From: Candidatus Heimdallarchaeota archaeon
GTDB lineage: Archaea > Asgardarchaeota > Heimdallarchaeia > JABLTI01
Assembly (NCBI GenBank): GCA_019058275.1
Contig: JAHLVW010000075.1
Location: 1 to 19,901 of the forward strand
Length of the DNA: 19,901 bases
Reading direction: 5' to 3'
Part shown: positions 3,090 through 19,794 of the stretch, piece after piece
Numbering within the stretch: the first letter of the stretch is position 1
Layout: the number at the start of each line of letters is the position of its first letter
Notes under the pieces: generated by a model
Told to the model about the DNA's origin: nothing
Databases searched by the model: none
Seen by the model: the letters and a program-made list of their open reading frames with translations, nothing else
Position numbers and translations under genes: made by a program

Positions 3090-4580
3090 ATGAGTGAAAA
3101 CGTTATTGAAGAACAGGAAAGAATTGATTATAGAAAACGAGTGTTGATTTGGTTTACCAAAAGAACAGCAATTCAAACAAAGAAAAAACATCAACCTATC
3201 TATCTTCAAAAAAAACTTGCTAGACAATCACTCATGGATCGTCAATTAAAAATACTCGAGGATAATGGATTCCTAGAGGTGGCATTTATCTCCAATGAGG
3301 TAGAGCTATTAGAATCACTTAAGGAAGAATTAAAAGCAAATCAATGGGAAAAGGAAGGTTTTACATTTGAGTTCACGAGTCAAAATGATCTTGCTAATTA
3401 CCTAAACGGTTCGGAAAAACAAAAAACCAATGAAATAATTCTAAATTTATCAGATGAATGGTTATTTGATGAGAGAATAATTAGAAATTTGTCTGAAAAA
3501 ATGCTCAAAGAAATGAAAAATGAAAACAATAAACAAGTAGAATTTATTTTTATTCAGGAAGATAGGAAGGAAATCCAAAGGGAAAAACAGCATGATTTAG
3601 TGTCTGAGGAATTTCTGCCATTAGTTGGAATTGTAACAGGAAGCCAAAATACCATTAGTAAGCAATTAATAAGAGAAGGAAATCAAGAAGAGGTAAATAA
3701 GCCACTTGAAAAGATAATTACTTTTGGTTTAAAGAAATCTCATAAAATAATAACAATGACAGAAATGCCAACATATATGACGTCAATGAGAAGGAAATTA
3801 CCAATCCAATATTACCTAGTAAGAGAGAGAAAGGATTTAGCAAAAGTAAAATGGGCTTTAACAAAACAAACACAGAAAGGAACATTAGACTTCATAGCTT
3901 GGTACTTTAACAGACCATTAGAAAATCTAGTAGTTTATGTAATAGCAAATTTACCAGTAACACCAAACCAAATAACCATATTAGTAAATATTATTGCATT
4001 CCTAGTTGCAGGATGCTTTATAACCTCTCCCTATTTGCTGGAGAATTATGAATTAACCTCGAGAGTTCTTCCTTGGATAGGGTTCATTGGATTAATAGTT
4101 GTTAACATCCTTGATGGAGTGGATGGAAAGCTAGCTCGAATAAGAGGACGCTTAACATTGCTAGGGTACATAGAGCACAGTTTCGATCAATTATATGAGC
4201 AAACTGTGTATTTTGCTGCATGTTGGTATTGTTTAACAATAACAAGTCAACCACTTATTCCATGGTTATTACTAATTGTGGCTTTTCTAATAATTGACAC
4301 ATTCAATAGGCATGTGTCAATGCAATACTATAACGTAATGAGGATCTCATTGGCAGACAGTGGTAAAATAGATAGAGCATTTCGAAGAATAGATGGAAGA
4401 AGAAATACCTACACAATCCACATACTGATTTTCTTTCTTCTACCTTGGAAACAATTTCTTGTAATATCAATGTTAACTCATGCGACTATTACAGGAATAG
4501 TATATGCAACCAGAGCAATACAACATCTAAGAAAAGCTGACAAAGGGATTTTTCCTGAAATGAAAAAACAGGAAATATGA
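3090..4580 (+). CDS. CDP-alcohol phosphotransferase family protein with a degenerate N-terminal NTP-transferase-like domain
   Basis: YFNRP...VTPNQIT and LDGVDGKLAR-x8-GYIEHSFD signature with several TM helices in the C-terminal half. The soluble N-terminal ~260 aa lack an intact GxGxR motif. Confidence 0.85.
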   Translation: MSENVIEEQERIDYRKRVLIWFTKRTAIQTKKKHQPIYLQKKLARQSLMDRQLKILEDNGFLEVAFISNEVELLESLKEELKANQWEKEGFTFEFTSQNDLANYLNGSEKQKTNEIILNLSDEWLFDERIIRNLSEKMLKEMKNENNKQVEFIFIQEDRKEIQREKQHDLVSEEFLPLVGIVTGSQNTISKQLIREGNQEEVNKPLEKIITFGLKKSHKIITMTEMPTYMTSMRRKLPIQYYLVRERKDLAKVKWALTKQTQKGTLDFIAWYFNRPLENLVVYVIANLPVTPNQITILVNIIAFLVAGCFITSPYLLENYELTSRVLPWIGFIGLIVVNILDGVDGKLARIRGRLTLLGYIEHSFDQLYEQTVYFAACWYCLTITSQPLIPWLLLIVAFLIIDTFNRHVSMQYYNVMRISLADSGKIDRAFRRIDGRRNTYTIHILIFFLLPWKQFLVISMLTHATITGIVYATRAIQHLRKADKGIFPEMKKQEI

Positions 4581-4635: not shown

Positions 4636-4860
4636 TCGGATGATGGTCTATCTTGGTTAACGCTCTCTAAAAGAGCTTGTGTTAACTTTTGATTCTCTGC
4701 GAGTCCGCCCAACTCCATTGCTGGAGGAACTTTCGTTTGATGGTTGACTGTGTGTCGCTAAAAAACTTCTCTCGAAACTCTTTCAGGAGTCGTTGCCTGA
4801 CCACAAGGCGTTTCTTTTGTGATACCGCTAGTAAAGCGAAGAATCTTTGCAGCAGAGTTG
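4636..4860 (-). ncRNA. Putative TnpB omegaRNA (scaffold overlapping tnpB 3' end, plus guide)
   Basis: Locally GC-richer segment with sense-strand hairpins TCAGG/CCTGA (4800-4783), CTCCA-GCAA-TGGAG (GNRA loop, 4726-4713) and GTTAAC..GCTCT/AGAGC-GTTAAC (4686-4656). This is the canonical location of TnpB omegaRNAs. Boundaries are approximate. Confidence 0.6.
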
Positions 4861-6214
4861 CTGCACTACTAGTATCTCTGTTTATTACTAACCCACAATC
4901 ACAACTAATAGTTCGTTCGGAGAGCAATTTGTTCTCCTTATTCATACAGTAGCTGCATCGTTTGGTTGTTCTTCGTTCACTGATCCTTATTACTTTCTTA
5001 CCTACTTTTTCTGCTTTGTAGGTTAAGAATCGAGCGAAGCGACCAATCGAACCACTGTTCTGCATACTTCTATGAAGACTTTTCTTGTTCTTCTTATCGT
5101 TCTTCTTGCTCTTACTCATTGCTTTAACATTCAAGTCACCAATGATTATAGTGTTTGCTTTGGTGTTCTCGACTATTTGTTTACTTATTTTGTGTTGGAA
5201 GTCTTTTCTTTGGTTTGCTTGTTTTGCAATCATTTTACTAAGTTTGTTATTATACCAGTGCCAGCGATTAGAATATTTTATGCAATGATCCCTTTTTTTT
5301 TGCACTTCCTCTATTTTTGGTTGCCAGTACTTGTCCACTCGCTTATTTTTGATGATTATTGTTTTTCCTTCGTGACTGTTCACAGCTGCAACCAAGTTGT
5401 TTATTCCCAGATCTATTGCCTGGTAAATATCATTGTTGTAGTACTCAGGGGTAGTTTGTTCGTATATGATCGATAGGAAGAATTCTTTGGTTTTATGTAC
5501 TTGGTAAATGGTTACTTGCTTCACTTTTTTGTTTGCGAAGGTGAATTTTCCTTGCATCTCGAAAGTGAGATTTACTTTTTTCGTTTCTTTTGTAGGATAA
5601 AAATGAGTAAAGGTTATCTTGTTTCCTTGAATTTTGAATCCGCTTTGATTATAGTGTATAGTGGTAAAGTATTTCTTCCCTTTGAATCCAGGTGGTCGTG
5701 CATCTTCATCTCCGTTATCTCTTAGAGTGTAAAACGAACGGTAATCCGCTTCTAATTGCTTTAGGGTGTCTTGCAGTGTTTTCGAGTAATTTTGTTGGTA
5801 TCGAGGATAGATTTCTTTTAGTTTTGGTAATTCTGCTGATTGCTTGTTATAGGTTGGTTTACTTTCTTTGTCTTGCTTCTTTTTTGGCAGGTGTTTATTT
5901 TTGTCCCACCATTCTTTTCTTTCTTTATTAGCGAAATAATGTATTAATCGACAGTTTTCTGCTAGTGCCCAGAGGATTTCTTTTTGTTCTATTGTTGGAT
6001 GGATTTTTACTTTAGCGGTTAATTGTAGTGGTTTCTTCTTTGTAGGTTTGGTTATTTGTTGTACTTGCTGTAGTGCTTTTTCTAATTCGTCCTTCGGAAG
6101 ATCAGCTATGAGTGTTTTGTAAGCTCTCTTTGTTAGTCTGTGATCTTTTGCGAACATTTTCTTCAATATTCTCTTTGTATGGTTAACTATATATTAAATT
6201 TATAAGGAGTTCAC
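4656..6214 (-). mobile_element. TnpB-only (IS1341-like, no tnpA) element; ends approximate
   Basis: tnpB with no Y1 or serine transposase in the window. A right-end-like hairpin ends at GTTAAC 4656. The left end is uncertain (GTGAAC motif at 6214-6209 on the minus strand). Confidence 0.5.
4682..6166 (-). CDS. tnpB: RNA-guided endonuclease TnpB (IS200/IS605/IS607 OrfB)
   Basis: N-terminal KVKIHPTIEQ...L, PPGFKG, RuvC-I AIDLGINNL, RuvC-II region IIIGDL, zinc finger CSYC...CDCG and RuvC-III NRD. Start is TTG 6166 or ATG 6157. Confidence 0.93.
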   Translation of the reverse strand: MKKMFAKDHRLTKRAYKTLIADLPKDELEKALQQVQQITKPTKKKPLQLTAKVKIHPTIEQKEILWALAENCRLIHYFANKERKEWWDKNKHLPKKKQDKESKPTYNKQSAELPKLKEIYPRYQQNYSKTLQDTLKQLEADYRSFYTLRDNGDEDARPPGFKGKKYFTTIHYNQSGFKIQGNKITFTHFYPTKETKKVNLTFEMQGKFTFANKKVKQVTIYQVHKTKEFFLSIIYEQTTPEYYNNDIYQAIDLGINNLVAAVNSHEGKTIIIKNKRVDKYWQPKIEEVQKKRDHCIKYSNRWHWYNNKLSKMIAKQANQRKDFQHKISKQIVENTKANTIIIGDLNVKAMSKSKKNDKKNKKSLHRSMQNSGSIGRFARFLTYKAEKVGKKVIRISERRTTKRCSYCMNKENKLLSERTISCDCGLVINRDTSSAATLLQRFFALLAVSQKKRLVVRQRLLKEFREKFFSDTQSTIKRKFLQQWSWADSQRIKS

Positions 6215-6319
6215 TGAAAGTAATAACATTTTAATTAAAAGAACAGTTAAACAATTAATTTTTCGTACAGCTTAACAAAGGGGTATTTAAGAAGAAATAC
6301 CTACTACTATTACAGGAGC

Positions 6320-7948
6320 ATGATGATGTCTGACTTTCTCAATTGGCGAATGGATCCTTTTCTTCTCGATCCTGTGCCAACAGCGAAAAATGAATGGTTA
6401 ACAGCAAATAAGCTGATAGAACAGCAAAAGCAATCAAAGATATTTCTTAAATCAAATAACCTCAACCTTTATTCCATTATGGTTCGCAAACATGATTTTC
6501 TTGCAGGGGAAAGACTCCTTCAGCGGTTTCCTTATGTTTCTTTACCTTCTGAGCTAGCATTAAATGTTCGTAAACAGTCACTTAGCTTAGCTGAGAGGTG
6601 CCATCATTACTTTATAGAAACTGCCATTAATTATTCTATTAAGAAGTGGCAAGCAAAACTTATTGATTATCTAGAAAACCAGAAACGTTTACCTTTCCCT
6701 TTGTTCCGGATGAGTGATCATTGGCACGAGTTTCTTAAGCAAGAACGTGTGCAATTCCAATCATCGCGTGGTGAACACTTCCATCTACCAACTCTATTGA
6801 CAGGTGATCTAGCTTATTTTTTAGGGGTAGTCATTGGCGATGGGCACTTGAATTATCACAATATAGAATTAGTTGATTTTTCACAAGAACATATGCTCAT
6901 GCTTCAAGCACTAGCAAAAAGATTATTTGGTATTGAAGGAACGATTTCTGGAGAGAAAAAGATTTGGCTTCTGCATTTGAACAACAAATGGCTTGTGCGA
7001 CTGGTTAATTTCCTAACAAACCAACCAATAACAGGGAAGAAGTACCATACATTACGGGAACCACTCATTTTTGTTCTTACAGAGAACTTACGGTGGGAGT
7101 TCTGGAGTGGAGTATTAGATGCCGATGGCTGTTATAAATCGCAGATCGATCTTTGTTCTTCATCTAAACAATTTATAGAAGAATTTGGTGAAGTTCTTGA
7201 TTCTTACAATATCAAATATAAAATACGAGAAATTCGATCACAATCAAGTCTAGGGTTTTCATTGGGTGTTAAAGCTAAATATAAGAATAATCTTAGTCAC
7301 TACTTACATCCAAGACACCCAATTAAACAAAAAGACTTTTCACATTATTTACACCAGAAGAAAGCACCATTATCTAATATTCAACCATTTGAGCGCTTGT
7401 ATATCTACCAAATTAATCCACAGACACTTGTTAATATAAATGATACTACATTCTTTAATTTTGAACTTCTTCCTATGCTCAATGTCACAAATTGCTCAAA
7501 TTATTTACGAATAGTTCGTAACACAAACCATTGGACTCAACAAGATTTAGCAGATTATTTAGAAATACCAAAAGGACGATTAGCATCATATGAATATCGA
7601 TCAAACCTTCCAATTAATTCTCTTAGAAAACTTCTTCCACTACTTCCAGATTCCCCTCCTCACTTAATGTTTTTTCTTAAGCATTATAATCATCAATACT
7701 TTCGCTCTCGGAAAACGTTAGCTCGACTCGATTTAGAACCAGATTCTAGTTTGCTTTCTATCCTAAAATCATTAATAATTTGTCGAGATTACATCATAGT
7801 ACAATGTGAAGAAGAGGAAAAGAAAAGGATTTATACTGAGCTTAGAAATCGTTTTAAATTAGCAATTGTTAAAACAAATACTATTCAAAATTCAGTCTTG
7901 TATCAATATATTAACACTTTCTTTTTGTTGACTACGGAACAAAAGTGA
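6320..7948 (+). CDS. Free-standing LAGLIDADG endonuclease-like protein with XRE-type HTH domain(s)
   Basis: Two LAGLIDADG helices, LAYFLGVVIGDG and FWSGVLDADG, and an HTH YLRIVRNTNHWTQQDLADYLEIPKGRLASYE. No intein N-terminal Cys or C-terminal His-Asn motif is visible. Confidence 0.8.
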   Translation: MMMSDFLNWRMDPFLLDPVPTAKNEWLTANKLIEQQKQSKIFLKSNNLNLYSIMVRKHDFLAGERLLQRFPYVSLPSELALNVRKQSLSLAERCHHYFIETAINYSIKKWQAKLIDYLENQKRLPFPLFRMSDHWHEFLKQERVQFQSSRGEHFHLPTLLTGDLAYFLGVVIGDGHLNYHNIELVDFSQEHMLMLQALAKRLFGIEGTISGEKKIWLLHLNNKWLVRLVNFLTNQPITGKKYHTLREPLIFVLTENLRWEFWSGVLDADGCYKSQIDLCSSSKQFIEEFGEVLDSYNIKYKIREIRSQSSLGFSLGVKAKYKNNLSHYLHPRHPIKQKDFSHYLHQKKAPLSNIQPFERLYIYQINPQTLVNINDTTFFNFELLPMLNVTNCSNYLRIVRNTNHWTQQDLADYLEIPKGRLASYEYRSNLPINSLRKLLPLLPDSPPHLMFFLKHYNHQYFRSRKTLARLDLEPDSSLLSILKSLIICRDYIIVQCEEEEKKRIYTELRNRFKLAIVKTNTIQNSVLYQYINTFFLLTTEQK

Positions 7949-7981
7949 TATTTAGAACCCTTTAAGATTTCTTCTGCTATT

Positions 7982-8183
7982 TTGAATAGAGAAGTTTTTT
8001 GGAGAACAGTCTCACAGAACAGAAGCAAGAGTGAATCACCTTGAATAAAAACTTCTATCGCTGAACGCTCCCCTCGTGCGACCTCATTCCTCCACTTCGT
8101 GGAGACCTCCTTTTATGATCGTCTTCGACACGAGAATCTGAGAAGATACAAAGAAGATGATTTTGCTGTGAAAATCTATTCAA
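7982..8183. ncRNA. Putative structured non-coding element (RNA or ssDNA), function unknown
   Basis: Nested stems: TTGAATAGA(7982-7990)/TCTATTCAA(8175-8183), GAAGTTTTT(7991-7999)/AAAAACTTC(8047-8055), CTCGTG(8073-8078)/CACGAG(8129-8134), CTCCAC-TTC-GTGGAG(8090-8104) and ATCT-GAGA-AGAT(8136-8147). GC-rich core in AT-rich non-coding DNA. Confidence 0.45.
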
Positions 8184-8311
8184 GAAAATCATAAAATACA
8201 TAAAAAAAGCAAAAAAAATGATTTTAGTATATTCTAAAGGGACATTATGGAATCTTCTTTTAGCAAAAAGAAGCCTTCTCCTACCTCCTTTTTTGTGCGA
8301 TTTTTCGAGCC

Positions 8312-8415
8312 TTTCTGTTTTTTTGCGAATTCTAGATGTTTTATAAATTCTAGTTTCCGTTTTTTGGCGATTTTAAATCTCATTCATTGTTTTGGTTTCT
8401 GTTTTCTGACGAATT
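8312..8415. repeat. Three degenerate 20-bp direct repeats at an exact 42-bp period
   Basis: 8312 TTTCTGTTTTTTTGCGAATT, 8354 TTTCCGTTTTTTGGCGATTT, 8396 TTTCTGTTTTCTGACGAATT, separated by 22-nt unrelated spacers. Confidence 0.6.
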
Positions 8416-8602
8416 TAGTGTTTTTTAAACAAAATCTGACAGAATTAAAATGAAGATAATATACAAATCAATAACTGGTATGAGATACTACAAGATTACC
8501 AACAAGTATTCCGTAATAAAACTAAACGGTTAACGAATAGAACCCATAAAATCAAACTCTCTTCAATAAGAAAAAAGGGAAAAGTGCTGTTGAATACAGT
8601 TA

Positions 8603-9079
8603 TTATCCACAATCACAGTCGCAACCACCAAGATCACAATCACCACAGTCACAGTCTCCGCAATCGCAATCTCCACAATCACAGCCGTTGCTACCACAAC
8701 CAGTTAAGTCGCAACCAGAAGTATCACATGTACTATAAGAACGTCGACGACGACCACTGCTATCATAGGAGCAGCAACAACAACAAGAACCAAAACAGAA
8801 CGATAATATTTCAAAAATGATGAAAAGTGGAAAAGTAAAACAATAGTACCATCTAAATTTTCGCATAGGTTCCCCTGGTTTAATCTGATAACTGCAATTA
8901 GCACATATTGTTGCGTTTACTGGATTTTGACGACTACAACTAGGACAGTAAATCACATTGGGTTTGGGGACAGCTTGTTGAGGAGGAGGTGTAGTAGCAG
9001 GAAGTTGTGAGCCACAATGTCTGCAATAAATATAATTAGAAGCATTCTCATTCCCACAATTTGGGCAAATTTTGCTCAT
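8603..9079 (-). CDS. Double zinc-ribbon membrane protein with Cys/Asp/Gly-rich C-terminal tail
   Basis: CPNC..CRHC and CPSC..CANC ribbons, a Pro/Gln linker, a hydrophobic helix WYYCFTFPLFIIFEILSFCFG, then CCCCC and (GDCDC)n. Confidence 0.8.
   Translation of the reverse strand: MSKICPNCGNENASNYIYCRHCGSQLPATTPPPQQAVPKPNVIYCPSCSRQNPVNATICANCSYQIKPGEPMRKFRWYYCFTFPLFIIFEILSFCFGSCCCCCSYDSSGRRRRSYSTCDTSGCDLTGCGSNGCDCGDCDCGDCDCGDCDLGGCDCDCG
8606..8686 (-). repeat. Coding tandem repeat (15-nt unit, CDCGD) in the Cys-rich tail
   Basis: Protein reads GCDCGDCDCGDCDCGDCDLGGCDCDCG; synonymous codons differ between units. Confidence 0.7.
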
Positions 9080-9183
9080 AGCTAAAGCTCACATACCAAC
9101 CCAAATATTATATTTAAAAGATTTAATCTTCTTTTAGCTTTTGGTTAGTAGATAATGAAATTAGGCTATAGATTTACAGTCAC

Positions 9184-10074
9184 TTAAACTTTCATTTTTA
9201 AAAGCCATTTTTTATTGTATTCACCTATATACATGAAGCCAATAGCCTTCTCTCCAACATGGGTGCCAACAAGTGAACCAGCTTCTTGAACGATAATCCT
9301 TTTGTTCTGTGTGTTATGAGTTTCCATAAGTTCTAGAAGTTCCTGAGCAGTTCCTGGATTTCTCACGTGCCAAATAAAAATAATGTCAGTAATTGCTTTT
9401 TCAAGAATAATGGGAGCAATAAATTTAAGTCGTTTTACAACTTCTTTTCTTCCTATAAGAGTACCACCTGAAACAATAGAGCCATCATTGAAATAAACAA
9501 CAGGTTTTATTCTAAGTGAGGAAACTAAGAATTTTTTTGCCCAACCAACCCTTCCACTACGATATACAGCATCAACACTATTTAAAACAACTACCAAACG
9601 TGCTTGAGGAATTAGCTCATCTAAACGCTTAAGAATTTCTTCTTTTGTTGCTCCATTCTTAGCCATTTTAGCTGCTTCGATAACAAGTACCCCCAAAGTT
9701 GAAGTAGCTACTCTTGAATCAACAATTGTAATGTCATCTCCTTTAAATGTACTACTAATTCTTAATGCATTTTGATACAATCCTGAGAAATTTTTTGACA
9801 AAACAATACATATAACTGTATCTGATTCAGCAAGAGCTTTTTGAAAGGTTTTTACAAAATCAATATTTGGAGGAATAGCAGAAGTAGGAGGTTCTACTGA
9901 AGTTTGAAGTTTAACATAAAATTCTTCTTTGGTAATTGTTCCCCAATCACCATAGGTTTTATAGACTTCTTCACCAAAAATCACTTGAAAGGGAATTACA
10001 TGAATACTATATTCTTCAATCAACTTTTTAGGGATATCACAACTACCATCTGTTACAATTGCTATTTTTTTCAT
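9184..10074 (-). CDS. degV: DegV/FakB family fatty-acid-binding protein (intact)
   Basis: IVTDGSCDIP, PTSAIP, LSKNFSG, VDSR, SGRV, IKPV and VGTHVG motifs; SD AAGGAGGA at 10089-10082. Confidence 0.92.
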   Translation of the reverse strand: MKKIAIVTDGSCDIPKKLIEEYSIHVIPFQVIFGEEVYKTYGDWGTITKEEFYVKLQTSVEPPTSAIPPNIDFVKTFQKALAESDTVICIVLSKNFSGLYQNALRISSTFKGDDITIVDSRVATSTLGVLVIEAAKMAKNGATKEEILKRLDELIPQARLVVVLNSVDAVYRSGRVGWAKKFLVSSLRIKPVVYFNDGSIVSGGTLIGRKEVVKRLKFIAPIILEKAITDIIFIWHVRNPGTAQELLELMETHNTQNKRIIVQEAGSLVGTHVGEKAIGFMYIGEYNKKWLLKMKV

Positions 10075-10128
10075 CAGGATTTCCTCCTTGAAGAAATAAT
10101 CAGTAAAATCTTGCTTTTATTGGGATTA

Positions 10129-10401
10129 TTATGCTTTTTGCGTCTGTTTACAAAATAAATAACAGTCACTCTCTCTTACTAAATCATTTAAAATTACAAT
10201 AAATACAAAAGCATCTTTTGGAGAATTAGCTAACCTTTTGAGAAATTCTTCTCGAGGGATAGTTGTTTCATCATTATTACAAACTTGATAAATATCGTCA
10301 ACAAAAATTACACGATATGGAACTATAGAAATATCATATTTCTCAATTAAGTTCTTAGGAAGATCATTAATTCCATCTGTAACAATTGTTACTTTTTTCA
10401 T
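10129..10401 (-). pseudogene. degV: Truncated DegV paralog (N-terminal ~65 aa only)
   Basis: MKKVTIVTDG..DLP..LIEKYDISIVPYRVIF aligns with the other two DegVs up to LANSPKDAF (~10207), then becomes unrelated and stops. GAGGTG SD precedes ATG 10401. Confidence 0.75.
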
Positions 10402-10583
10402 TGAACACACCTCAATCAGTAAAACTATGGAACAACAAAGGAATATTCTTCAAATCATATTTGTTTTAATTTATTTAAAATTGCTCTGATTTTACAGTCA
10501 TAAGAAATTAAAGCTAACAAAATACTTTAGTGATGAAAAATCATGGTATAATAACAATAATTATTTCCATCTATGTGATAGCT

Positions 10584-11291
10584 ATGACAGCAATAAAAAT
10601 AATGATAGTTAGTTTAACGTGTATTGGATCATATCTTTTAGGATCAATACCTTTCTCTGTTTGGGGAGGACAACTAATAAAAGGAACAGACCTTCGGACG
10701 CAACATACCCATAACCCCGGAGGATTCAACGCCATAAGGACTTTTGGACCAGGAATTGGATTAATAATAATGTTCCTTGATTTACTTAAAGGAGTGCTAA
10801 CAATAGCTCTTATAGATCATATATACTCGATACCATATTTTGTGACAGAAGATGCTTCAAATAACTATTACACCATAATGTGCATTCTAGGACCAGCTTT
10901 GTGTGTAATGGGGCACAACTATTCCATTTGGTTAAAATTCAGAGGAGGACAAGGATTAGGAGTTTTAATGGGTGTTTTAATGTACTTTAATCCATTAGTC
11001 TTAATGTTTTATCTCTTAGCATTTATGGTGTTTGTAGGGATTTTCAAAGCAATACCTCGAGTTGCAGGATTTGTTATAGTACTCCTATGCGTACCTGTTG
11101 CGCTCTTTATGCCAATCGGACCACCATGGAGTAACATACTGGTAAATTTGGTCGTTGGAGCAAATGGTTTAGTGCACTTAACAGCAGGATTAATCATCAC
11201 AGGAATGAATTTAGCATTACTAATAAAATTAGTAGGAAATCTATTTACAGGTTCATCAATAGGAAAAAGAAAAATAATAGAAACTAGTTGA
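10584..11291 (+). CDS. plsY: PlsY-family glycerol-3-phosphate acyltransferase, divergent
   Basis: SYLLGSIPF, DLR....NPGGFNAIR, DLLKG and GHNYSIWLKFRGGQG motifs with multiple TM helices. ATG 10584 (after GTGAT) is preferred over the tracked 10530 start. Confidence 0.85.
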   Translation: MTAIKIMIVSLTCIGSYLLGSIPFSVWGGQLIKGTDLRTQHTHNPGGFNAIRTFGPGIGLIIMFLDLLKGVLTIALIDHIYSIPYFVTEDASNNYYTIMCILGPALCVMGHNYSIWLKFRGGQGLGVLMGVLMYFNPLVLMFYLLAFMVFVGIFKAIPRVAGFVIVLLCVPVALFMPIGPPWSNILVNLVVGANGLVHLTAGLIITGMNLALLIKLVGNLFTGSSIGKRKIIETS

Positions 11292-18906: not shown

Positions 18907-19794
18907 ATGTCTAAAGTAACTATCGTTACAGATGGTCTTTCCGAGTTGACTAAGGACCAAGTTGAAGAATATAATGTGGTGACTATCCCTTACAGGATTA
19001 TTTTTGGAGATGAAGTATATTATATCAAGAATAATACTGAAGGGGAATTAACAACACAGGAATTCTGTGAAAAATTAAAAACAGTAAATAAAGAAACTTT
19101 TCCAAGAACGTCTGTTCCATCACCGGGTGATTTAGTAAAAGCGTATGATGAAGCGTTTAAGAAATTAGATAGTGTGATTGCCTTCACTATCACCTCCGGC
19201 ATGTCTGGGACATATCAAGCAGCGAAGGGAGTAGTAGCTAATGGCTACCAAGATAAAGATATCACAGTCTTTGATTCCTTACATACCATGACTGGAATTG
19301 GGAGTCAAGCAATTGAAGCAGCTAAAATGGCTTACAAAGGGGAAAGTAAAGAACAAATCCTCAAAAGGCTTGAAGCAATCAGACCAAAAACAAGATACAT
19401 ACTCGCAATGAGAGATTTGGATTTCCTGGAAAAGCAAGGGCGACTTGGACCAATTGAAAAAATCTGAGATAAAAATCCAGAGGTCATTCCAGTGATTCAT
19501 GAAGTAGATGGTATCTTGCAACCACTATCAATGTTCAACAATGAACAAAACCTCATTGATAGAATGAGTGCTTTTGCGAAGAAGATATGTGAAGTAACTG
19601 AAACAGATGATATCTTTCTAAGTCATATAAATAACCAGAAAGCAGGCGATGTCATATACAAAGTATTAATGGAAAATAAAAAAGAGAGCACAGAAATACA
19701 CTATCATGAAGCATGTCCAATTCTAGGAGCTTATTCTGGACCTGATAGTATTTCTCTTAGTTATGTTGGAGGTTTTGAAAAAGATTGGTTATGA
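18907..19794 (+). pseudogene. degV: Full-length DegV/FakB paralog interrupted by one in-frame TGA (19465-19467)
   Basis: ORFs 18907..19467 and 19492..19794 share a frame. Read through, they give a 295-codon DegV (VTDG, PRTSVP, SGMSGTY, DS, QGRL, IPVI, ILGAYSGP) colinear with 9184..10074. Confidence 0.8.

Follow-up and report, generated by a model that had tools for sequence, protein, structure and literature searches.

The window analysed here, a 19,901-nucleotide (nt) stretch of DNA, is contig C70 of a 118-contig, 4.1-Mb Heimdallarchaeota genome bin that is 93% complete, and has a G+C content of ~33%. In it, a gene for a TnpB-type protein stands head to head with a gene for a free-standing LAGLIDADG endonuclease of 542 amino acids (aa), which is followed by some 650 base pairs (bp) of non-coding DNA holding a folded element and an array of 42-bp repeats. 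With moderate confidence, we take this to be the middle of a cut-down copy of a mobile gene cassette that exists in many copies in one Heimdallarchaeota genus; that grade applies to the reading as a whole, that is, a truncated cassette with a free-standing nuclease and an internal control region made up of the folded element and a promoter array. Open reading frames (ORFs) around 21 paralogue loci were clustered into neighbour families, which are given F numbers below, the LAGLIDADG gene being F0. The features concerned are the following.

4682-6166, minus strand: intact TnpB-type gene (F1), 494 aa, head to head with the LAGLIDADG gene.
6274-6319, plus strand: putative promoter and ribosome-binding site of the LAGLIDADG gene (AACAAAGGGGTATTTAAGAAG at 6274-6294; AGGAG at 6314-6318).
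6320-7948, plus strand: free-standing LAGLIDADG endonuclease gene, 542 aa (Pfam, alignment and AlphaFold model).
8012-8171: extended folded element, with an outer stem (TCACAG 8012-8017 / CTGTGA 8166-8171) and a second stem (CTTCT 8052-8056 / AGAAG 8141-8145).
8051-8155: core of the folded element, with the invariant loop TCGCTGAACGCTCC at 8058-8071.
8073-8078/8129-8134, 8079-8083/8117-8121 and 8090-8095/8099-8104: core stems P1 and P2 and the tip hairpin, respectively.
8232-8243: conserved 12-mer TTCTAAAGGGAC.
8265-8294: A-run (8265-8269), GAAGCC...CCTCC and T-run (8289-8294), the stem being degraded in the window copy.
8286-8304: weaker fourth box, at a 28-nt offset.
8312-8353, 8354-8395 and 8396-8437, plus strand: three 42-bp units, each a 19-nt box plus a TATA-like stretch.
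8450-8533, plus strand: 27-codon stub of F13, a gene of ~200 aa, recognised by alignment with the copies at C52, C33 and L012.

The first-pass annotation of this DNA had described the 542-aa ORF as having both acidic motifs intact and as lying outside any intein or rRNA or tRNA intron, and Pfam, the alignment and null Rfam, tRNA and Hint results bear this out. At gathering thresholds the window contains no tRNA, rRNA, intron or other Rfam family, and Pfam finds no Hint or other intein splicing domain in the protein; the gene starts at an ATG of its own, with AGGAG as ribosome-binding site 2-6 nt ahead of it and a conserved motif further upstream, and is thus not of the intron- or intein-encoded kind. 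The upstream motif, ACAAAG(A/G)GGTATTTAAGAA, lies 26-46 nt upstream of the ATG and is common to many paralogues, upstream of many of which ACAAAGAGGTATTTAAGAA and AGGAG are also kept; it is a putative promoter. The protein comprises an N-terminal domain without assignment (~aa 1-150), a double LAGLIDADG core (~150-345), an XRE-type helix-turn-helix (HTH; ~393-441) and a C-terminal domain. Pfam LAGLIDADG_3 matches in two stretches (E 2.7e-9) and HTH_3 matches weakly at aa 396-438, with precomputed HTH_3, HTH_31 or HTH_19 matches in many homologues. The two motifs read ..VIGDG (D174) and ..LDADG (D267, D269), and across 42 aligned homologues, down to 31% identity, G173-D174-G175, D267, D269 and G270 do not vary. 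The AlphaFold model built from this 42-member alignment has a mean predicted local distance difference test score (pLDDT) of 92, and with the central part of the model Foldseek finds I-DmoI (template-modelling (TM) score 0.70-0.74 of target) and I-Tsp061I (0.66), all with a probability of 1.00, as well as the endonuclease domains of the TliVMA, PI-PfuI and PI-SceI inteins; model and Foldseek matches agree in the pseudo-dimeric alpha-beta-beta-alpha-beta-beta-alpha fold of double-motif LAGLIDADG endonucleases. NCBIfam matches fall on intein regions of V-ATPase A, ribonucleotide reductase and initiation factor IF-2, which fits descent from archaeal intein or intron endonucleases. Sequence and model together mark the protein as a genuine LAGLIDADG nuclease with two motifs and the I-DmoI fold, whose active site is under purifying selection, and the enzyme is probably active.

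The family is large. We found 66 homologues, those with a source name being almost all from 'Candidatus Heimdallarchaeota archaeon'; 23 protein matches at 29-61% identity lie within the same genome, and other genomes of the genus hold 1-18 family candidates each. I-DmoI, I-Tsp061I, PI-PfuI and TliVMA share with the window protein two motifs per chain, the conserved acidic residues and the fold (TM 0.66-0.74); however, the window protein is encoded outside any intron or intein, carries a ~150-aa N-terminal domain and a ~190-aa C-terminal region with the XRE HTH, and belongs to a family with ~23 diverged copies per genome in multi-gene cassettes. WhiA, a domesticated LAGLIDADG and HTH regulator of Gram-positive bacteria that has lost its catalytic residues, has the same domain order, with a LAGLIDADG core followed by a C-terminal helix-turn-helix. 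In contrast to WhiA, the window protein has an XRE-type HTH, is multi-copy and linked to mobile elements, and keeps its catalytic aspartates, which are invariant across the family; nor are the WhiA models reached, with 18.2 bits for LAGLIDADG_WhiA against a cut-off of 23.2 and no HTH_WhiA or WhiA_N match.

Downstream of the gene, we found no credible ORF in 7949-8602, in agreement with the earlier view that ~650 bp here are otherwise non-coding; an ORF of 68 aa running across the repeats (8247-8453) was rejected as coding, its start not being conserved and the indels among paralogues not being multiples of three. The DNA is nevertheless well conserved: positions 8058-8460 are 77% identical in nucleotide sequence to the DNA behind paralogue C52 and 70% to that behind C33, the same region is found behind every relative of at least 56% protein identity in other genomes, and between the closest paralogues the intergenic identity is 74-76% as against 68-70% for the gene itself. 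Conservation is lowest in the first 100 nt behind the stop codon and highest in the core of the folded element. In the alignment, the order is a variable stretch, the folded element, an A-rich variable tract (8175-8230), the 12-mer, an A-run/T-run hairpin, one to three 42-bp units and the ATG of F13. The 12-mer is unchanged in nearly all copies of the window's type, C33 having TTTTAAAGGGAC with one base different, and motifs related to AAAGGRAC stand at the same place in the downstream regions of other subfamilies; it may, on this positional evidence, be a promoter or operator element, and its weight lies in the conserved position because, by frequency alone, the word is no rarer in the window than expected by chance. 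At the equivalent of 8265-8294, relatives have a clean hairpin (GAAGGC/GCCTTC) between the A-run and the T-run, a candidate terminator. A 13-nt direct repeat, TAGAACCCTTTAA (7953-7965) and TAGAACCCATAAA (8538-8550), flanks the entire conserved stretch and may well be due to chance.

The folded element, which is supported by covariation and absent from Rfam, is in our judgement the most interesting part of the window. Its core of ~105 nt forms a Y-shaped, nested, multi-stem structure. As a single sequence, 7975-8200 folds modestly better than its shuffles (z -1.98 on the plus strand, -1.40 on the minus strand), so the case for structure rests on comparison among copies. A covariance model of the core (R1), which scores 110 bits at the window copy, matches 11 places in 12 genomes of the order, and scans of public collections brought the number of distinct copies to 16. 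In their alignment 94% of cells are paired and five pairs are changed on both sides, and 0 of 500 shuffles match the observed paired share or covariation score. P1 (CTCGTG/CACGAG) and P2 (CGACC/GGTCG) are nearly invariant; the tip hairpin occurs in five sequence versions (CTCCAC/GTGGAG, CTCCAT/ATGGAG, CCCCAC/GTGGGG, AAAAG-CCAC/GTGG-CTTTT and AAAAG-CCCG/CGG-CTTTT), all of which keep the pairing. Two proposed outer helices bring the element to ~160 nt. In a 14-copy alignment of this whole structure (A4), 80.4% of cells are paired, as compared to 36-47% when the partners are slid, and 12 pairs are changed on both sides; 0 of 500 shuffles reach the observed values on four of five measures, including paired share and covariation score, and 1 of 500 reaches the count of 12 double-sided changes. 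The outermost helix on its own is weaker, with 64% of cells paired. The nested-stem element noted in the first-pass annotation thus exists, and its estimated ~200 nt was roughly right, but the conserved part begins ~61 nt after the stop codon and not 34. Rfam returned no match for it beyond weak ones (E 4-10) to unrelated microRNA and small nucleolar RNA models. It does not stand where a TnpB omega-RNA would, the 3' end of tnpB being at 4682 and the folded element at 8012-8171, beyond another gene. A match to the invariant loop at C45 was set aside as chance, as it lies inside a chaperonin-like coding region; matches from pattern scans of public collections were likewise mostly chance hits in high-GC bacteria, and only Heimdall contigs passed the covariance model.

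The setting of these features becomes clear from the paralogue loci. F0 almost always faces a divergent partner, either a TnpB-type gene (F1), a gene for a ~720-aa protein (F5) or the pair F6+F7, and these partner modules vary among close paralogues; the head-to-head arrangement with TnpB is found at ~9 of ~21 paralogue loci. In the window, the TnpB protein has Pfam matches to OrfB_IS605 (1.2e-15), to the Cas12f1-like TNB family (1.1e-14) and to HTH_OrfB_IS605. On its other side, F0 usually leads into a co-directional operon, which behind the closest paralogues, C52 and C33, has the order F13-F14-F2-F19-F3. The products are F13 (200 aa, weak HTH), F14 (~700 aa), F2 (~530 aa), F19 (183 aa, weak TrmB-type winged HTH) and, from the last gene, F3, a DEAD/DEAH helicase of 799 aa; Pfam finds nothing in the operon genes beyond the helicase and the weak HTH matches. 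The region shared upstream by the TnpB and LAGLIDADG genes (6167-6273) holds the motifs ..ATATATAGC..TAAGGAGTT..CCGAAAGTA..TTAAAAGAATAGTTAA.., which are kept at many paralogue loci and may be the left end or the promoter of the TnpB element.

In the window, similarity to the full cassettes ends near 8462, a few codons past the ATG of F13, and falls beyond this point to the level of shuffled sequence; positions 8463-8602 have no match above that level in full cassettes or elsewhere in the genome. The sequence ATGAGAATAATG, which opens the real gene in C52, C33 and L012, opens the 27-codon stub here, and the genes 3' of the break, an unrelated zinc-ribbon gene and a DegV gene, are on the opposite strand. 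By this alignment, the window copy is a truncated, decayed derivative from which the operon has been deleted just after its start codon, at ~8462, the nuclease gene, the TnpB partner and the control region being the survivors. Contigs from three DNA runs span 5300-10219, and one of these differs from the window at 44 positions (~99% identity), which indicates another strain. Because contigs from three runs, one of them of a slightly different strain, carry the same layout, it is not a misassembly, and the truncation is real and stable. A loose contig end at 8444 belongs to contigs of paralogue C52; apparent joints in the assemblies, considered as repeat-number variants of the window locus, were rejected as such since they stem from paralogue contigs. 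Given its place between the LAGLIDADG gene and the downstream operon of full copies, we take the 650-bp non-coding stretch, on comparative grounds, to be the cassette's internal control region.

The phased 42-bp repeats reported earlier are real: the pattern TTTCTGTTTTnnGRCGAAT, the first 19 nt of each unit, is kept in all units, at 8312, 8354 and 8396 the boxes differ from TTTCTGTTTTNNGRCGAWT in no more than one position, and none of 200 shuffles equals the window's four box matches, the weaker fourth box included. Tandem Repeats Finder made no call on the array because the second half of each unit has diverged. This second part, of 23 nt, is most intact in the last unit (..TTAGTGCTTTTTAAACAAAA..), which has TTTTTTAAAC at 8421-8430, 20-29 nt before the ATG at 8450, and in all copies the first ATG of F13 follows TTTTTAAAC of the last unit at a distance of 20-30 nt. 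In archaea, 20-30 nt before the start codon is the expected position of the transcription factor B recognition element (BRE) and TATA box for a short-leader or leaderless transcript. The TATA-like segment of the last unit is thus a putative promoter of the downstream operon; in units 1 and 2 the corresponding stretches, TTTTATAAA and TTTTAAAT, are decayed, and a homologous ..TAGYKCTTTTTAAAG.. precedes the operon in other subfamilies. There are three units in C70, C52 and C33 only, two in L012 and elsewhere one or none that is recognisable, and within this genome box clusters occur only at C70, C52 and C33. Homologous units align between these three paralogues, so the triplication predates their divergence; since unit number varies from one to three, we regard the array as a lineage-specific tandem duplication of box plus promoter rather than a fixed component. 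A period of 42 bp is a spacing of four helical turns, at which an HTH protein could well bind cooperatively along the same side of the DNA, with the boxes as candidate sites. Other subfamilies have boxes of their own, as downstream of the genes at C48:28748-30328 and C19:15488-16405 of the same genome (G000), where three copies of ~AAGTCCGAT(A/T)AAATATCT occur. This suggests that the sets of operators are specific to each subfamily.

Outside the subfamily of the window, a different GC-rich sequence occupies the place of the folded element with the same architecture, namely a closing stem, a small 5' hairpin and a long three-tier hairpin. A covariance model of this second type (R2) finds 26 copies in 9 of 12 genomes, with 93.6% of cells paired and 17 pairs changed on both sides. 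All 12 strong second-type matches lie directly behind a LAGLIDADG gene; the 14 weaker ones have no LAGLIDADG gene within 1.5 kb and stand either beside F22 (70 aa) together with F5, or beside TnpB or F6/F7 modules. At L213, L214, L217, L218, L223, L208 and L209, diverged second-type copies abut the 3' end of F22 in convergent orientation, and at loci of the L213 kind the element adjoins F5- or TnpB-type genes where the LAGLIDADG gene would be expected; such loci may be variants that have lost the nuclease gene.

This distribution bears on whether nuclease, folded element and repeats form one autonomous unit, as the first-pass annotation had proposed; the protein might then, for example, bind its own downstream RNA as a maturase binds its intron and the repeats as a WhiA-like regulator would. 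Several observations favour such a unit: the protein combines an HTH with a nucleic-acid-binding LAGLIDADG core, the non-coding DNA is as conserved as the gene, the strong second-type copies all follow a LAGLIDADG gene, and in the closest subfamily the parts are co-inherited, with the gene directly upstream in 10 of 14 window-type copies with readable flanks. However, a solo window-type copy exists at C61:271887-271994 (G000; L026:2388-2495), scoring 89 bits and keeping ~190 nt of the flanking control region, with no LAGLIDADG or cassette gene within 2.5 kb. In L088 (G009:C1) and L042, and also in L149, a 325-aa gene in opposite orientation, homologous to the gene directly behind paralogue C84, sits between the LAGLIDADG stop and the element; in L088 and L042 homology resumes ~70 nt before the core, at the outer stem of the element. 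Because the insertion breaks at its 5' edge, the element belongs to the head of the downstream module and not to the nuclease gene. The 14 related elements that stand beside other cassette genes without a nuclease, the variation from one to three repeats, the last of which coincides with the putative operon promoter, and the kept catalytic residues, unlike WhiA, likewise speak against such a unit, and we consider it unlikely, if still deserving of attention. Of the original idea that the three parts are one unit, co-inheritance among the closest relatives stands, but the folded element and the repeats appear as parts of the spacer and control region of a larger cassette. A comparison of the DNA downstream of homologues had been suggested as a check; the covarying structure proved to be conserved, and the repeat number (three, two or one) did not. 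An element occurring independently of the gene was to count against the idea, and the solo copy at C61 and the 14 weaker relatives without a LAGLIDADG gene are partly of this kind.

Returning to the truncated cassette with its internal control region, which we favour, one can outline how it might work. Like a homing endonuclease, the nuclease would cut a specific DNA site and thereby promote the spread or the retention of the cassette. The 19-nt boxes would be bound by a cassette-encoded HTH protein, either through the nuclease's own HTH or by the HTH-like F13 or F19, and this protein, lined up along a single side of the DNA, would govern how the operon is transcribed. From the folded element, at the head of the downstream module, a small structured RNA would be made, either as the structured 3' end of the nuclease transcript or as a separate small RNA; it might mark the boundary of a transcript or assist cassette proteins as a cofactor. 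In the window, where the operon is lost, the promoter array would now read into the 27-codon stub.

Several points weigh against this picture. We infer the promoters, the terminators and the RNA itself, as well as protein binding to the 19-nt boxes, from sequence only. The homology of the two types of folded element is argued from shared architecture and position, and neither the R1 and R2 covariance models nor nhmmer finds cross-matches between them. The compensatory changes could be explained just as well by a site that folds as single-stranded DNA. The evidence on strand, moreover, is contradictory between the types. In the window type, single-sided changes are mostly C-A on the plus strand and hence G-U on the minus strand (33 versus 12 cells over all helices), P1 and P2 have five G-U cells on the minus strand versus none on the plus strand, and RNAalifold prefers the minus strand (-14.0 versus -10.0 kcal/mol). 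In the second type, G-U pairs favour the plus strand (46 versus 17), alifold slightly prefers it as well (-20.3 versus -18.9), and a T5-T9 run follows the closing stem on that strand in 8 of 9 copies. T-runs also follow the core on the minus strand in 12 of 15 window-type copies, but carry little weight because T-runs are so common on that strand here. A plus-strand G-to-A mutational bias could mimic the minus-strand signal in the small and closely related window-type set. On balance, we lean towards transcription of the folded element from the plus strand.

If the element instead acts as DNA, it could fold, as a single strand, into a recombination or junction site at the borders of cassettes, following the logic of integron attC sites, and a cassette enzyme such as the nuclease would use it to swap modules. 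Such a role would account for a structure that is kept while the tip sequence varies freely, for its position at module borders, where the L088 insertion breaks exactly at the element's 5' edge, and for the related copies that flank TnpB-, RAMP- and F5-type modules while the partners of the nuclease differ among close paralogues. However, an RNA ending in a terminator would explain the long invariant loops and the T-run behind the closing stem no less well, we saw no recombination junctions and neither duplicated half-sites nor empty sites, and neither a tyrosine recombinase nor an IntI-type recombinase is present; we therefore think a DNA site improbable. A bolder proposal, to which we give only a modest chance, is that the element represents a novel kind of functional part in the mobile or defence cassettes of Asgard archaea, whether a guide or scaffold RNA for cassette proteins such as the LAGLIDADG nuclease or the helicase, or a folded-DNA junction site for swapping nuclease modules around a LAGLIDADG 'hub', an archaeal counterpart of attC.

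The A/T-rich stretch, phased boxes and hairpins might also be taken for the replication origin of an integrated plasmid-like element, with the boxes as iterons, given three boxes at four-turn spacing beside the A-rich tract and a helicase operon in full copies. Most relatives, however, have a single box, the last box directly adjoins a TATA-like sequence and a start codon, no replication initiator or primase was recognised, and the cassette exists in ~20 chromosomal copies, which makes an origin very improbable. That the repeats are a degenerate mini-array like those of clustered regularly interspaced short palindromic repeats (CRISPR) is suggested by their regular spacing and can practically be dismissed, as the conserved part is a T-rich box of 19 nt, the intervening 23-nt 'spacers' are homologous between paralogues and units and decay from a TATA-containing prototype, there are only 1-3 copies, and the last 'spacer' is, by the alignment, the putative promoter and start of F13.

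The zinc-ribbon protein (DZR, DUF7577) is encoded at 8603-9079 on the minus strand, and its C-terminal tail contains a 15-nt tandem repeat in 4.7 copies (8614-8683) encoding a Cys/Asp-rich run, CDCDCGDCDCG.... Several bacterial-type lipid genes are grouped here in an Asgard genome: DegV (fatty-acid binding; 9184-10074, minus strand) and the following two.

3090-4580, plus strand: long CDP-alcohol phosphatidyltransferase gene.
10530-11291, plus strand: PlsY (glycerol-3-phosphate acyltransferase) gene.

The stop codon of tnpB is only ~100 nt away from the adjacent gene for CDP-alcohol phosphatidyltransferase. A second DegV gene is present as two ORFs on the plus strand (18907-19467 and 19492-19794, covering profile positions 1-176 and 193-278) and is probably frameshifted or interrupted. 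Orthologues of the flanking DegV gene exist in relatives (~70% nucleotide identity), where the gene order of the window is not kept.

Two published accounts come close to what we describe. Altae-Tran et al. (2023; PMC10691335) reported Asgard aCas1-TnpB loci and TnpB transposons with 'WhiA/meganuclease-like' cargo; their loci share with ours a TnpB gene adjoining a meganuclease-like gene in an Asgard mobile locus, and full copies of the cassette carry a helicase operon of the kind sketched there. The main text of PMC10691335 contains neither 'LAGLIDADG' nor 'homing endonuclease', and its sole remark on Asgard non-coding DNA concerns a hypervariable region downstream of tnpB, which is on the other side of the locus from the folded element. 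Wu et al. (2022; PMC8813620) described HeimM2, an element of Ca. Heimdallarchaeum with a free-standing homing-endonuclease homologue proposed to be co-opted for site-specific integration. HeimM2 is likewise a mobile element of the Heimdall group with such a homologue, but it is 8 kb long and lies beside a 16S rRNA gene, and PMC8813620 reports no multi-copy family or folded element. In lacking an Rfam match and standing at a cassette junction, the folded element resembles orphan structured RNA motifs found next to mobile or defence genes. A search of the literature on LAGLIDADG proteins in Asgard and Heimdall archaea yielded nothing on this nuclease family or on the folded element.

Of all known prokaryotes, Asgard archaea are the most closely related to eukaryotes, and few of their mobile elements have been charted. 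Here, a large and diverged family of stand-alone, apparently active LAGLIDADG nucleases forms the constant gene of modular cassettes that otherwise carry nucleases of the TnpB, RAMP or other types, which is an uncommon role for a homing endonuclease, and a structured, RNA-like element that is backed by covariation and absent from Rfam lies at the internal junction of the cassette. The truncation in the window is a natural one that parts the nuclease and control region from the operon and shows which pieces persist together. Should the element turn out to serve as a cofactor RNA or as a site of recombination, it would offer a handle on how these cassettes move and exchange modules, and the nuclease family could supply new meganuclease specificities.

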